DNA of 64,000 bases, taken from the IMG/VR virus record IMGVR_UViG_3300036766_001364, positions 1-64,000 of that record, one strand, 5' to 3'. Each line of letters opens with the position of its first letter. The first letter of the stretch is position 1. The DNA comes from a virus. Taxonomy: Duplodnaviria; Heunggongvirae; Uroviricota; Caudoviricetes. A program made the translations under genes and the position numbers. This document shows positions 51,051 through 59,109 of this stretch, piece by piece. Below the pieces are notes generated by a model. It was not told the DNA's origin and did no database searches. It saw only the letters and a program-made list of their open reading frames with translations.

Positions 51051-51425
51051 ATGCCGCAGTGGGATCGACCGGTCGAAGACACGACGGGGACGCGCGGTCA
51101 CCGCGCGCTCCACGACGCTATCGTGGCGGTGGGGTTCGACGTCGAGGACGAGCACGCCGTGGGCCGATATTCGATCGATTGTTACGTGCGCGAAGCGCAC
51201 CTCGGCTTTGAGTTTGACGGCCCCAAGCACGGCTGGAGGAGCGCCAAGAAGCGCGATTCAGAACGCGACCTGTGGATCCGTGAGAACGGCGGGATACCGA
51301 TCATGCGCGTGACCGATAGAGACGTCTCACGGCGGAGCGAGCTGGCCGGTAGGATCCGACAGTTCATCATCGACAATGAGCACGACATCGCCGACAGGAG
51401 GGCCCAAGGATGGGCGCTGGTATAG
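51051..51425 (+). CDS. DUF559 / Vsr-like (PD-(D/E)xK) endonuclease-domain protein
   Basis: YSIDCYVREAHLGFEFDGPKHGW...RDLWIRENGGIPIMRV. Confidence 0.55.
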   Translation: MPQWDRPVEDTTGTRGHRALHDAIVAVGFDVEDEHAVGRYSIDCYVREAHLGFEFDGPKHGWRSAKKRDSERDLWIRENGGIPIMRVTDRDVSRRSELAGRIRQFIIDNEHDIADRRAQGWALV

Positions 51426-51793
51426 CGGACAACCTCCAGCAGATCATGGACGCGCAGGGACGCCTCCAGGAGCGCATGCTCCCGAAGTGGGTCGCGATGG
51501 GCGAAGCGCTCGGCCTGGACTACATGTCGCTCTACCTCAAGGAGAACTGCGTCATGCTGGTTGACGAAGCGCTCGAGGCGATGCACGAGACGCCGTGGAA
51601 GTTCCACAAGAATGACTTCGGACGAGCGATGCTTGACGGCGAGCGCGACCGCTATCTCCATGAGACGATCGACTGCCTCCATTTCGTGGTGAACATGCTC
51701 ATCTTCGCGGGCGTCACGTCTGCCGACGAGGTCTTGGCGCTCTATATGGAAAAGAACGAAATCAATCACGATCGCCAGGATCGGGGGTACTGA
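51410..51793 (+). CDS. MazG-like / dimeric-dUTPase-like all-alpha NTP pyrophosphohydrolase (candidate dCTPase/dUTPase, like T4 gp56)
   Basis: Alpha-helical protein with VDEALEAMHETPWKFHK...LHETIDCLHF acidic motifs; assignment from memory. Confidence 0.45.
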   Translation: MGAGIADNLQQIMDAQGRLQERMLPKWVAMGEALGLDYMSLYLKENCVMLVDEALEAMHETPWKFHKNDFGRAMLDGERDRYLHETIDCLHFVVNMLIFAGVTSADEVLALYMEKNEINHDRQDRGY

Positions 51794-51833
51794 GACGCCA
51801 CAGCTCCAGCCGAGGCAGACCCATAGCGCGATC

Positions 51834-52241
51834 GTGTGGATGCTCTCGGGCATGAGCGGGGTGTCGCGCGAGACGGTGCACGAGAAGTTCCAGGCGTTTC
51901 TGCAAGAGATATATGACAACCCAGACTTCAGGAAGAAGAAGGACGGATCGAAGATCAATTTCACGACGTTCAGGGGGAACGTCCACGACGCGTTCAGGAT
52001 GATCGAGACGGTGATCTACGAGCTGGACACGGCGAACGGCGCCGTCCTGAAGGCCATGCACGAGGGATACTTCGGCGGCGGGAATCTGAAGTCGATCAGG
52101 GAGAAGGTCGTGAGACTGGTCCGCGAACGGAAGCGCATCCCGATGCGAGCGAAGCGCGAGGGGATCAGAGTCGACCAGAAGCACAGGGGCGCGATCATCA
52201 CCGATCCCGCCGCAGCCGAAGCTCGACCGAGAGCAAGCTGA
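51834..52241 (+). CDS. Hypothetical protein (135 aa)
   Basis: ORF in track. Confidence 0.4.
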   Translation: MWMLSGMSGVSRETVHEKFQAFLQEIYDNPDFRKKKDGSKINFTTFRGNVHDAFRMIETVIYELDTANGAVLKAMHEGYFGGGNLKSIREKVVRLVRERKRIPMRAKREGIRVDQKHRGAIITDPAAAEARPRAS

Positions 52242-57315: not shown

Positions 57316-57319
57316 TCGC

Positions 57320-58267
57320 ATGACAGATCCCTTCGTCGTCATAGAGGGCATAGATGGAGCGGGGAAATCTACGCTCGCCAGGGCTTTCGTCGCTCAAGGG
57401 ATGGCGTACGGACACTTTGGTCCACCCGACAGACCCGCGTACCGATTCTACTCAGAGATCTTTGACCGCCACCCACACCAGGCGACCGTCGTCGATCGGA
57501 TGCACGTCGGGAGCTTCGTGTATGGCACGATCTTTCGCGGGATGGACGAACTGACGCCCTACGAGCACTGGCTCATCGAGGGCCGGCTCATGGGCCGGAA
57601 CAGCGTCATGGTCTACGCGTGTCCCCCGGCGGTCGCCTCGGATCGCGCGCTCGACCGCGGTCCGCGCGACGCCGTTGAGGAGCTCTATGAGGACGCGAGC
57701 CGACGAGACGACGTGCGCCGGCTCTACGAACAGTACATGAGCAGCATGTCTGCATTGCCGATCTTCGCTTACGATTTCACGGCCGCTCCAGACGCGATGC
57801 AGCGCACTGTGTCTGAGGTGATGGCGACGCTCGCGTATTTCTCTGATGCGCCCCGCCCCGTGGCGTCGGCAGACCCATTTGGGAATGCCTATTCTCCACA
57901 GTACTGTCTCGTCGGCGCTGCGCCGAGTCGCTACCTGCACGGGGCGCTCGTCGCCGCTCGAATACGGTTGAATGCCACGTGCATCGTTGGGCGGCTGCCG
58001 GACGATTATGAACCGAGCGAGTTCTGGCTGTCGACAGTCTTCGTCGCGCTTGGCAGGAAGGCGCACGCGCAGCTCGATGAGATGGGAATCAAGCACGTCG
58101 CCGTGCCCCATCCCGGCCTCGTCGAGGCGGCGCATTACGCCGACATCGTCCGCTATGCGAAGGCGATCAGGGGCGATACAGACTTCCCGCTCGATCGCCC
58201 GACGAAGCGCGAAGAGCTCGCAGCGACCGCGTCTAGGCTCAGGAAGATCGGGCTTGTTCTGCCGTGA
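57320..58267 (+). CDS. P-loop deoxynucleoside monophosphate kinase (thymidylate-kinase-like; T4 gp1 analogue) with a C-terminal extension of about 110 aa
   Basis: VVIEGIDGAGKSTLARAF Walker A of the Tmk/dNMP kinase type. Confidence 0.7.
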   Translation: MTDPFVVIEGIDGAGKSTLARAFVAQGMAYGHFGPPDRPAYRFYSEIFDRHPHQATVVDRMHVGSFVYGTIFRGMDELTPYEHWLIEGRLMGRNSVMVYACPPAVASDRALDRGPRDAVEELYEDASRRDDVRRLYEQYMSSMSALPIFAYDFTAAPDAMQRTVSEVMATLAYFSDAPRPVASADPFGNAYSPQYCLVGAAPSRYLHGALVAARIRLNATCIVGRLPDDYEPSEFWLSTVFVALGRKAHAQLDEMGIKHVAVPHPGLVEAAHYADIVRYAKAIRGDTDFPLDRPTKREELAATASRLRKIGLVLP

Positions 58268-59109
58268 AGGTCTACAGGCTCGATGCCCTTGGCACGGGAT
58301 ACGCAGACCTCCTCAGAGACGTCGAGCAGAGCGGCGACATCGTGAGGCCGCGCGGGATGGAGGTCCGCGAGGTCAGGCCGCTCGTGCTCGAGATCTTAGA
58401 TCCGACGCGATCGCTCGTGAAGCGTCCGGGGATCAACCGCGCGCTGATGTGGATGGAGATCGCGCAGCTCATCGCGGGTGAATGGGACGAGGGGCTCATG
58501 CGCGCGATGTCCGCGCAGGCAGCCGTACTCATGTCCGCTCAGGGCGCGTACGGGCCGCGCACGGCGATGCAGCTCGAGCAGGCCGTCCTCGAGCTGGTCC
58601 ACGACGCGGACTCGCGTCGTGCGACTGTGATCGTGGCGCGCGAGAGCGACCTGTTGAAAGCGCGGGCCGGCGCGAATGAACAGCCGTGCACGCTGTCTTG
58701 GCAAGTTTTCGCGAGAGGCGGCAGGCTCGAGATGGTGGTCAGCATGCGCTCGTGGGACCTCGTCTGGGGGCTCGCAAACGACGTGCCGATGTTCACCATG
58801 ATCCAGCGATGTCTCGCGTGGGCGCTCGGCCTCGAAGTCGGGACGTACACCCATGTCGCGGGCAGCGGCCACGTCTATAGCCGCCACTACGGGCTCTGGG
58901 AGCGGGTGTCGCCGACGACCGAGCGGCTCGCGCTCGTGATTCCACGCGATCTGCCAAGCGGCTTCATGGCGCAGGACAGGTGGGTCGGCGTCGTCGCTGG
59001 AGCGATATCGGCTCTCAGGCTCGCGAGGGTCGGTAAGCTTGACGAGCTGCCCGCGCATTGGAGCCACGTCGCTCCCCTCTGGAAGAAGAAGCTGGAGAAT
59101 CATGGCTGA
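58264..59109 (+). CDS. ThyA-fold pyrimidine hydroxymethylase/methylase, predicted deoxycytidylate hydroxymethylase (T4 gp42-like)
   Basis: DSRRATVIVAR; catalytic QPCTLSWQ; MRSWDLVWGLANDVPMF aligns with E. coli QRSCDVFLGLPFNIASY so that ThyA Asn177 becomes Asp, the cytosine-specificity determinant of gp42; LEVGTYTHVAGSGHVYSRHY. Confidence 0.75.
   Translation: MKVYRLDALGTGYADLLRDVEQSGDIVRPRGMEVREVRPLVLEILDPTRSLVKRPGINRALMWMEIAQLIAGEWDEGLMRAMSAQAAVLMSAQGAYGPRTAMQLEQAVLELVHDADSRRATVIVARESDLLKARAGANEQPCTLSWQVFARGGRLEMVVSMRSWDLVWGLANDVPMFTMIQRCLAWALGLEVGTYTHVAGSGHVYSRHYGLWERVSPTTERLALVIPRDLPSGFMAQDRWVGVVAGAISALRLARVGKLDELPAHWSHVAPLWKKKLENHG

Follow-up and report, generated by a model that had tools for sequence, protein, structure and literature searches.

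A 64,000-nucleotide stretch of an uncultured, GC-rich phage (Caudoviricetes; positions 1 to 64,000 of IMG/VR record IMGVR_UViG_3300036766_001364; hereafter, the window) contains one tightly packed + strand operon, at window positions 51051-60004, that follows the genes for RecA, primase, DnaB, and PolA. This operon probably equips the phage to put 5-hydroxymethylcytosine (5hmC) in the place of cytosine and then to add a sugar, in the manner of T4: 5-hydroxymethyl-dC (5hm-dC) would be made before replication and subsequently glycosylated by an enzyme resembling the T4 beta-glucosyltransferase (BGT). The logic is that of the T-even phages, with protein families that are partly different. An earlier note, made from the sequence alone, had described a T4-like island at this locus; the genes that it named are present as a contiguous block on the + strand (Pfam and PHROGs matches; junctions of -16 to +40 bases), and the core route to glycosylated 5hm-dC is supported, while its views of the kinase type, the extent of replacement, and the roles of nearby nucleases are not.

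In the proposed pathway, the MazG-fold pyrophosphatase would convert dCTP, and probably dUTP, to the monophosphate, thereby depleting the canonical precursor and feeding the next step, in which the ThyA-fold enzyme would transfer a methylene group from 5,10-methylene-tetrahydrofolate onto C5 of dCMP, with hydration to 5-hydroxymethyl-dCMP (5hm-dCMP). The substrate and product classes of this step are predicted from four experimentally calibrated active-site positions. A Tmk-type kinase would then phosphorylate 5hm-dCMP, a host NDP kinase would yield the triphosphate, and the family-A polymerase of the phage would incorporate it, while the dCMP deaminase, like T4 cd, would divert some dCMP to dUMP so as to supply dTTP. 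Once the DNA is replicated, the BGT-like GT-B enzyme would glycosylate its 5-hydroxymethyl groups, with a host UDP-sugar as the donor; glucose is the default guess, since there are no sugar-nucleotide genes next to the island. The sugar would shield the DNA from restriction enzymes and from hmC-specific type IV enzymes. A C5 methyltransferase encoded in the same operon suggests that part of the cytosine stays unmodified and that its methylation adds a second protective layer.

The ThyA-fold enzyme and the glycosyltransferase

The predicted ThyA-fold dCMP 5-hydroxymethylase (58264..59109, +) matches Pfam Thymidylat_synt (E 1.8e-12), and its closest PDB match is the CMP 5-hydroxymethylase MilA, with which it aligns over its full length, including a C-terminal extension (E 9e-16). 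In the same PDB sequence comparison, ordinary thymidylate synthases were matched at ~1e-7 and T4 gp42 at E 1e-6. The catalytic residues of the fold are kept: E65, Y96, R118, C142, R162, S163, H203, and Y205, the equivalents of E58, Y94, R126/R127, the catalytic Cys, R166, S167, H207, and Y209, are invariant in the alignment, and D165 is likewise present. In E. coli numbering, the residues that set the enzyme's signature are N177 replaced by Asp (D173), L143 by Glu (E139), and H147 by Thr (T143), with D169 kept as D165. The D173 column, within a 'GLAND' motif, holds Asn in the S. aureus and E. coli thymidylate synthases, Asp186 in MilA, and Asp179 in T4 gp42, bearing out the gp42-like Asp-for-Asn replacement proposed earlier; this alignment also shows Asn, where the window enzyme has Asp, in the proven dUMP hydroxymethylases of SPO1 (gp29) and SP-10. 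E139 sits in 'EQPC' (D145 in T4 gp42), and D165 sits in 'RSWD', where 5-hydroxy-dCMP synthases have Asn. At the positions of MilA K133 and A176, the phage enzyme carries Arg and Ser ('DSRR' and 'MRSWD', versus 'DSKR' and 'MRAND' in MilA).

The meaning of these positions has been calibrated elsewhere. The N177D exchange defines a dCMP substrate, Asn going with uracil and Asp with cytosine (PMC13326640, PMC8670742, PMC5175136). At L143, a bulky hydrophobic residue goes with a methyl product and Asp or Glu with a hydroxymethyl product, a relationship that is correlative and not proven (PMC13326640). Asn at D169 is the mark of the recently discovered flavin-dependent 5-hydroxy-dCMP synthases, such as RB69 gp48 and DLP3 gp80, all tested members of which have it (PMC13326640), and the Lys133/Ala176 pair of MilA leads to a preference for ribonucleotides, Arg/Ser to one for deoxynucleotides (PMC5175136). 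Asp177 together with a non-His residue at 147 is enriched on viral contigs selected experimentally for modified cytosine (MetaGPA; PMC8670742). Judged by these residues, the predicted enzyme carries the full published dCMP hydroxymethylase signature (dCMP substrate, hydroxymethyl product, deoxyribose) and lacks the signatures of thymidylate synthases, dUMP hydroxymethylases, and 5-hydroxy-dCMP synthases. Identity as a 5-hydroxy-dCMP synthase was ruled out by the Asp kept at the D169 position. A mildiomycin-like small-molecule pathway (MilA, MilB, and a glycosyltransferase) was also dismissed, given the deoxy-specific Arg/Ser pair, the setting among replication genes, and a glycosyltransferase that is BGT-like and not of the cytosylglucuronate synthase type.

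Relatives were drawn from 73 related IMG/VR loci and all ThyA homologs were aligned; counts below refer to 78 homologs or 79 loci. Asp/Thr/Asp at positions 177/147/169 is common to 78/78 viral relatives, which places the enzyme in a large, coherent viral clade of predicted 5hm-dCMP synthases, and position 143 is Asp or Glu in 74 of the 78. No second ThyA was found in the window, where phmmer matches the island gene only. ThyX is also absent from the window, in which RHRxxS motifs occur only in non-coding frames, and neither gene is annotated in the 10 kb beyond it. A profile scan of genome contigs with the hydroxymethylase family returned one distant match only, in a Dehalococcoidia metagenome-assembled genome, and thus gave no clue to the host.

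The glycosyltransferase (GT; 52700..53815, +; 371 aa) has Pfam matches of its own only to the GT4 N-terminal domain, and these are weak and below the Pfam cutoff. Three other close homologs were found among 5.8 billion proteins, and a profile search of 1.8 billion representative proteins recovered 130 relatives. A tblastn search of 50,697 phage GenBank records gave no match, an IMG/VR scan with the GT alignment found nothing, and a metagenome scan added only two further loci, of the type of the related loci L009 and L010. Among 40 GT relatives examined, 12 match Pfam Glyco_trans_1_2 and two match T4-Gluco-transf (PF09198). The profile of these 40 members aligns with T4 BGT over 307 columns (hhalign probability 99.1%, E 8.6e-19), and five family members match BGT directly by phmmer (E 8e-28 to 4e-8), indicating, at the level of sequence profiles, a rare family that is distantly homologous to BGT beyond the mere sharing of a GT-B fold. 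BGT Arg191, Arg195, Arg269, and Glu272, the UDP-sugar ligands in BGT structures, align together with D100 to R221, R223, R291, E294, and D119 of the GT, and these positions are kept in 39 of the 40 members (allowing D/E, R/K, and E/Q/D). D100 is the BGT catalytic base (bioRxiv 10.1101/2023.12.21.572611). The 30 best Foldseek PDB matches of the GT model are all GT-B enzymes (E ~4e-4, TM ~0.4), for a model that is of low confidence in its C-terminal domain.

As proposed here, the GT would use a UDP-sugar to glycosylate 5hmC in DNA. Among phage DNA glycosyltransferases, those that are GT-B-like have mostly been linked to pre-replicative ThyS pathways (bioRxiv 10.1101/2023.12.21.572611). The GT family is present in 5/79 related loci; its gene follows the MazG-like gene in every locus with a homolog, and in all four independent contexts it lies between that gene and deaminase, methylase, or kinase genes.

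Relatives, all of which have a dCMP-type hydroxymethylase, differ in what lies between the gp56-like (MazG-like) gene and the kinase/hydroxymethylase pair. In the window this slot holds the BGT-like GT. In L009 (11119-12985), L010, L090, and L091, the GT-bearing relatives closest to the window, amino-sugar tailoring genes come after the GT, namely a GFO_IDH_MocA oxidoreductase and a DegT/DnrJ/EryC1 aminotransferase. GFO/IDH/MocA and DegT enzymes are a typical pair for making amino-sugar nucleotides, and their presence suggests an amino-sugar donor for DNA glycosylation in L009/L010. In L011, the GT is followed by a second GT and by aGPT-Pplase/ADDT, and in L002 the slot contains HMUDK, a phosphatase, a HAD hydrolase, and a methyltransferase. 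A C5 DNA-methyltransferase-fold enzyme lies next to the kinase in the window, L002, L009/L010, and L011 alike. As a separate observation, HMUDK_HMUD1 in L002 (3718-4401), and ADDT with aGPT-Pplase3 in L011 (12453-13499), occur together with an Asp-type ThyA homolog, and genes for a dual-specificity phosphatase, a HAD hydrolase, and Methyltransf_21 are found in these relatives as well; such enzyme sets hint at undescribed cytosine hypermodifications.

Precursor enzymes, the C5 methyltransferase, and locus architecture

The all-alpha MazG/dimeric-dUTPase-type NTP pyrophosphohydrolase (51410..51793, +; 127 aa) matches Pfam dUTPase_2 (E 2e-13, 51.4 bits against a cutoff of 22.9) and the PHROG 173 NTP pyrophosphohydrolases (E 1.6e-15), and its C-terminal 43 residues are 47% identical to T4 gp56 (BLASTP E 2e-10). 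The likeness to gp56 that had been noted therefore stands, and the protein is proposed to be a dCTPase (and dUTPase) counterpart of gp56. The dCMP deaminase (53812..54243, +; 143 aa) matches Pfam dCMP_cyt_deam_1 (E 5e-19) and PHROG 174 (E 1.9e-40), and the expected zinc motifs were located, HAE at residue 70 and PCFRC (PCxxC) at residue 97. A dCMP deaminase occurs in 54/79 related loci.

The kinase (57320..58267, +; 315 aa) has the P-loop EGIDGAGKST that the earlier note had read as gp1-like. The P-loop is present, but the protein is Tmk-like, with a match to the PHROG thymidylate kinases (E 2.5e-12), and has two domains. The first, N-terminal, is of the thymidylate-kinase/deoxynucleoside-kinase type and would, as proposed, phosphorylate 5hm-dCMP to 5hm-dCDP. 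The second, made up of the C-terminal ~140 residues, is a divergent, partly degenerate member of the UDG superfamily: less degenerate homologs keep 'VGEAPS...PF...G', one of them matches Pfam UDG (E 1.6e-4), and family-4 UDGs account for 21 of 22 weak PDB profile matches. Structure searches with the whole kinase model matched the N-terminal (P-loop) domain only, so that the fold of the C-terminal domain has weak sequence signals as its sole support; this domain shows no similarity to the UDG-like protein encoded upstream of PolA. A kinase goes with the hydroxymethylase in 64/79 related loci, and the UDG-like domain is detectable in 45 of these. The fusion was also seen in a cultured phage, AXL3, as gp29 (L014:7980-8963). 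Replisome tethering and base recognition are only guesses at the role of the UDG-like domain.

The C5 cytosine DNA methyltransferase (55090..57315, +; 741 aa) was absent from the gene list of the earlier note, as were its intein, the NADAR gene (52241-52699), and the 135-aa open reading frame (ORF) at 51834-52241. It matches Pfam DNA_methylase (E 2.4e-19, 70.4 bits), LAGLIDADG_2 (E 9.6e-11), and Intein_splicing (E 9.1e-6). The 362-aa LAGLIDADG intein (55324..56409, +) starts with CFSADTVVL, ends with VVHN|C, and splits motif IV between ANPP and the catalytic Cys; because the insertion lies exactly before this Cys, the residue doubles as the intein +1 residue. After removal of the intein, motifs IV (ANPPC), VI (ESV), and VIII (QSRERF) are intact in an extein of 379 aa, with an atypical motif I (YSGAF), and the extein aligns with the uninterrupted homolog in L011, which reads FANPPCAPWS without the insert. 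The activity of the enzyme would hinge on the intein being spliced out. Inteins have been described in actinophage methylases (PMC9957025). Homologs of the methyltransferase lie just upstream of the kinase in L002, L009/L010, and L011, and a C5 methyltransferase is found within 10 kb of the hydroxymethylase in 15/79 related loci. Since a conserved C5 methyltransferase inside the island requires unmodified cytosine in the DNA, full replacement of cytosine, as envisaged in the earlier note, is not supported; we infer that partial replacement or layered protection is the simplest reconciliation.

Three nucleases in and around the island had been thought capable of degrading unmodified DNA selectively. 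All three genes are present, while no evidence for selectivity was found for the NUMOD3-DUF559 or Cas4/RecB-like gene, and one of the three is mobile. The free-standing homing endonuclease with NUMOD3 repeats and a DUF559 nuclease domain (54283..55089, +) matches Pfam NUMOD3 (E 3.9e-17) and a PHROG homing endonuclease family, has a GC content of 0.523 versus ~0.63 in its neighbors, and is absent at the deaminase-methylase junction of L009 and L010; it is a mobile insertion, not a part of the pathway. The locus thus holds two mobile elements, this endonuclease and the adjacent intein. The small DUF559/MTES_1575 protein (51051..51425, +; 124 aa), of the Vsr-like endonuclease fold, matches Pfam DUF559 (E 1.5e-5, above cutoff) and MTES_1575 (E 1.2e-6, below cutoff). 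Its gene is conserved at the head of the island in at least 10 relatives, with homologs adjoining the MazG-like gene in L002, L003, L009, L011, L015, L016, L019, L025, L038, and L046. The protein could be a Vsr-fold nuclease; selectivity for unmodified DNA would be pure speculation. The Cas4/RecB-like PD-(D/E)xK exonuclease (59102..60004, +) matches PHROG 1706 (E 1.7e-10) and PHROG 1990 (Cas4-domain exonuclease, E 3.1e-8), is a conserved downstream neighbor of the ThyA homolog, following it in many relatives, and is probably a recombination or processing nuclease of a kind common in phage recombination modules.

From position 51051 on, twelve + strand genes are packed with junctions in the range given above, the last one listed being an ORF without a family match (59998-60555). 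Two further members of this series lie between the MazG-like and GT genes. The ORF at 51834..52241 (+; 135 aa) has no Pfam match and no assigned function (PHROG 25626, unknown function, E 5.8e-4) and is called as a gene in independent assemblies too. The NADAR-domain protein (52241..52699, +; 152 aa; Pfam NADAR E 5.6e-26) has homologs at other positions in relatives L001 and L003; its gene is probably a passenger outside the pathway (anti-defense or ADP-ribose-related), possibly encoding an anti-defense enzyme that removes ADP-ribose.

Upstream of the island, on the + strand, the family-A polymerase appears split into a UDG-like/exonuclease part (41173-42369), an intervening ORF of 175 aa (42378-42905), and the polymerase domain (43067-44743); relative L011, by comparison, has one 868-aa protein that unites the UDG, exonuclease, and polymerase parts. 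These are followed by DnaB (45029-46504, +), an MT-A70 adenine methyltransferase (46501-47058, +; PHROG 359, E 5.5e-60) between the DnaB and primase genes, primase (47058-48017, +), and RecA (49943-51049, +). With the MT-A70 gene upstream of the island, the phage appears to encode adenine methylation and cytosine C5 methylation as well as an hmC pathway. Of the replication genes named earlier, the family-A polymerase, RecA, DnaB, and primase were recovered, and the gp32-like single-stranded DNA-binding protein was not: three + strand ORFs without family matches lie between primase and RecA, and Pfam, PHROG, and PDB sequence searches found no match for the candidates at 48048-48800 and 48770-49600.

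The parent metagenomic phage sequence is 171,975 bp (~172 kb) long, and the GC content of the window is 63.9%. The window sequence was assembled independently in ENA ERZ27247924 (94.7 kb) and Logan SRR9617649 (69 kb). The gene order of the island recurs in independent assemblies and in diverged relatives, with synteny after the RecA gene kept, and is therefore not due to chance. Many window ORFs match PHROG families. A megablast search of positions 51000-60000 against the 50,697 phage records gave no match; with the GT search of the same records, this leaves no close cultured relative that could be used. No tRNAs were found in the window. Elsewhere, the early region encodes an RtcB-type RNA ligase (15180-16532; PHROG 1075, E 6e-108) and an SPFH/Band-7 protein (30439-31431; Pfam E 1.7e-25), and positions 1-4100 differ from the remaining window in having a GC content of 0.69-0.70, negative GC skew, and mostly minus-strand ORFs. 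About 6-9 kb past the window end (L088 16086-16712 and 18204-18698) lie genes for a small PI3_PI4_kinase-like protein and an HhH-GPD DNA glycosylase, a pair that also occurs in relative L003.

Alternative pathways

Several observations weigh against replacement of cytosine by glycosylated 5hmC. The phage is known solely from metagenome assemblies, and for the MazG-like protein dCTPase specificity is no more than a prediction. The kinase is more like thymidylate kinases, whose substrates have uracil-type bases, than like T4 gp1. The link between the GT and BGT depends on intermediate family members: the four close GT homologs alone reach a probability of 33% against BGT (E 4.5e-4), over the C-terminal domain only, which is also where the AF2 model of the GT is of low confidence (pLDDT 67 and pTM 0.73 overall, with a confident N-terminal domain and residues 218-287 at pLDDT <50). 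The C5 methyltransferase, apparently intact and conserved, would need unsubstituted cytosine and would be idle if replacement were complete. Finally, Asp-type enzymes are accompanied by HMUDK in L002 and by aGPT-Pplase/ADDT in L011, families so far tied to 5-hydroxymethyluracil (5hmU) chemistry and thymidine hypermodification. It is conceivable, though unlikely, that 5hmC is a shared hub and not an end point, with the thymidine-hypermodification enzymes acting on 5hmC to give undescribed cytosine hypermodifications, and with the methyltransferase either writing motif-specific 5-methylcytosine (5mC) in a mosaic genome (C, 5mC, and glycosyl-5hmC) or playing a non-canonical role on hmC DNA. Cytosine replacement in the window phage would then be mixed and not complete.

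The same enzymes of L002 and L011, together with the Tmk-like kinase, the deaminase in the island and in the majority of related loci, and a conserved methyltransferase that implies unmodified cytosine, could instead point to replacement of thymine: the Asp-type enzyme would make 5hm-dCMP, the deaminase would convert it to 5hm-dUMP, and the Tmk-type kinase would lead it to 5hmU in place of T, which would be glycosylated in a base-J-like manner while cytosine stays canonical and C5-methylated. Such a route lacks precedent and is rated improbable, because the L002 and L011 loci show no dCMP deaminase, the dUMP hydroxymethylases of the 5hmU phages SPO1 and SP-10 are of the Asn type, 5hmC is the known substrate of T4 BGT-type enzymes, and the DNA of phage AXL3, with its shared core module, is cleaved at AATT and TTAA and at no G/C-containing site (PMC7504290). 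The enrichment of Asp177 ThyA homologs on cytosine-modified contigs (PMC8670742) also speaks against it. Since Asp177 fixes the substrate (dCMP) only, a different product might be formed, such as 5-methyl-dCMP (as in XP12) or 5-hydroxy-dCMP (as in RB69), leaving the GT without an acceptor or acting on 5-hydroxycytosine (5hoC); L143E is indeed found in the 5hoC synthases of the RB69 type as well, with DNA glycosyl (arabinosyl) transferases following them (PMC13326640). This appears very unlikely, as the tested 5hoC synthases all have Asn at D169 where the enzyme and all 78 relatives have Asp, a methyl product goes with a bulky hydrophobic residue where this enzyme has Glu, the nearest solved relative along the full length, C-terminal extension included, is the hydroxymethylase MilA, and a BGT-like GT needs a hydroxyl acceptor.

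The presence of a C5 methyltransferase and a GT in one operon recalls the C5-MT, 5mYOX, and GT operons of phages (PMC8256090; bioRxiv 10.1101/2023.12.21.572611), and 5hmC might accordingly arise after replication, with 5mC written at motifs, oxidized in TET fashion by an unrecognized oxidase, and glycosylated, the ThyA homolog serving nucleotide supply only. That course of events is highly improbable, since a scan of the ORFs between 41 and 63 kb detected no TET/JBP or other 2OG-dioxygenase (2OG-Fe(II)) domain; furthermore, Asp177, Glu143, and Thr147 set the ThyA homolog apart from ordinary thymidylate synthases, and GT-B-type phage GTs go mainly with ThyS pathways according to the bioRxiv report. 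Lastly, the genes might be mere neighbors, with a GT that acts on a cell-envelope or protein target and nucleotide genes that only boost dNTP supply, as the generic, sub-threshold Pfam matches of the GT, its low-confidence C-terminal model, and its rarity among related loci would allow. There is little likelihood of this, given that the GT family is homologous to T4 BGT and keeps its catalytic and UDP-binding residues, and given the constant slot of the GT in all four contexts, and the other DNA-modification enzymes that fill the variable slot of relatives. Pre-replicative synthesis of 5hm-dC followed by BGT-like glycosylation is the reading adopted below.

Significance and comparison with known systems

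The island is a further example of a known anti-restriction strategy and not a new kind of system; modules of Asp-type ThyA, MazG, and dCMP deaminase, as well as ThyS-linked GT-B enzymes, are already known from viromes, as reported in PMC8670742 and bioRxiv 10.1101/2023.12.21.572611. What differs from T4, and may reward further study, is the fusion of a Tmk-type kinase with a UDG-like domain, the rarity of the BGT-like subfamily, the conservation of a C5 methyltransferase, and the variable hypermodification cassettes of relatives. If the proposed pathway is correct, T4-style glycosyl-hydroxymethylcytosine DNA would extend to a large, GC-rich, uncultured lineage with a family-A polymerase, and a rare, very divergent branch would be added to the BGT-like DNA glycosyltransferases. 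Because such enzymes serve as tools for 5hmC detection, this branch, possibly with another sugar specificity, would be of practical interest. The hydroxymethylase would represent a family of 78 virome relatives with an identical active-site signature, mostly paired with the fusion kinase; the cassettes of these relatives point to further undescribed cytosine modifications, and the conserved C5 methyltransferase raises the question of whether cytosine replacement in these phages is complete or partial.

T4 encodes the same five biochemical roles (gp56, gp42, gp1, cd, and the alpha-/beta-glucosyltransferases). The ThyA homolog shares the equivalents of gp42 Asp179, acidic 145, and Thr149 (gp42 having D179, D145, and D171), the GT family is homologous to beta-GT with the equivalents of D100/R191/R195/R269/E272 present, the MazG-like protein is locally similar to gp56, and the genes adjoin those for recombinase, helicase, and primase, an arrangement shared with T4. 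In contrast to T4, the hydroxymethylase of the window is nearer to MilA than to gp42 (E 9e-16 versus 1e-6) and has a C-terminal extension of ~65 residues, the kinase is Tmk-type with a UDG-like domain and not gp1-type, alpha-GT is missing, and the polymerase is of family A. The window also has a C5 DNA methyltransferase and an MT-A70 adenine methyltransferase, and its genes form one operon, whereas those of T4 are scattered.

MilA of Streptomyces rimofaciens, which functions in mildiomycin biosynthesis, has in common with the phage enzyme the Asp for cytosine and an acidic residue at the L143 position. However, MilA has Lys133/Ala176, with ribonucleotide preference, where the phage enzyme has Arg/Ser as in deoxy-specific enzymes, and MilA acts in antibiotic synthesis with the MilB N-glycosidase, not within a phage replication operon. 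SPO1 and SP-10 likewise combine a ThyA-fold hydroxymethylase carrying an acidic L143 residue with a dCMP deaminase and a dUTPase-like enzyme; their hydroxymethylases have Asn at the specificity position, in contrast to the Asp found here, and the window lacks a 5-HMUDK.

Among virome sequences, the MetaGPA modules combine an Asp177/non-His147 ThyA homolog with a PRA-PH/MazG-type pyrophosphatase and a dCMP deaminase on cytosine-modified contigs (PMC8670742). In the NEB metagenome mining, GT-B-like phage GTs were most often ThyS-linked (bioRxiv 10.1101/2023.12.21.572611); the GT subfamily of the window is very rare. The kinase-UDG fusion and the adjacent C5 methyltransferase were not met with in the searched passages of these two reports, and a literature search on hmC in actinobacteriophages, or on a hydroxymethylase together with a C5 methyltransferase, found nothing relevant.

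Complete replacement of cytosine by 5mC in a GC-rich genome is known from Xanthomonas phage XP12. A cultured parallel in gene content is the gp27-gp31 module of Stenotrophomonas phage vB_SmaS-AXL_3 (AXL3; L014, NC_071036), a 47.5-kb siphovirus of 63.3% GC, in which one cluster encodes gp30 (MazG-like), gp29 (a Tmk-UDG fusion), gp28 (a ThyA homolog of the Asp type), and gp27 (a dCMP deaminase). AXL3 gp29 is 27% identical to the window kinase at 84% coverage, and gp28, with motifs 'PYD', 'KDVPC', and 'RSSD', is only 33% identical to the window ThyA homolog over the core. AXL3 differs in lacking a BGT-like GT and a C5 DNA methyltransferase, in place of which it has a class-I SAM methyltransferase. 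Its gp28 was annotated by its authors as an ordinary thymidylate synthase (PMC7504290); the label is probably wrong, as Asp177, Asp143, and Asp169 are kept and AXL3 has a separate ThyX, gp50. Of 37 restriction enzymes tested on AXL3 DNA, the 35 with G/C in their sites failed to cut, leaving TasI and Tru1I, with the pure A/T sites AATT and TTAA, as the only ones that did (PMC7504290), a pattern that indicates a G/C modification with unmodified T and fits replacement of C, not of T. The dCMP-hydroxymethylase signature of gp28 could explain this G/C-specific resistance, for which the hydroxymethylase family is thus a candidate. The earlier note had regarded modification on this scale as extreme at such a high GC content; the content is indeed high, but the restriction pattern of AXL3, with the same core module at a similar GC content, provides a precedent for a high-GC phage with heavy G/C-directed modification and makes the case of the window phage less extreme.

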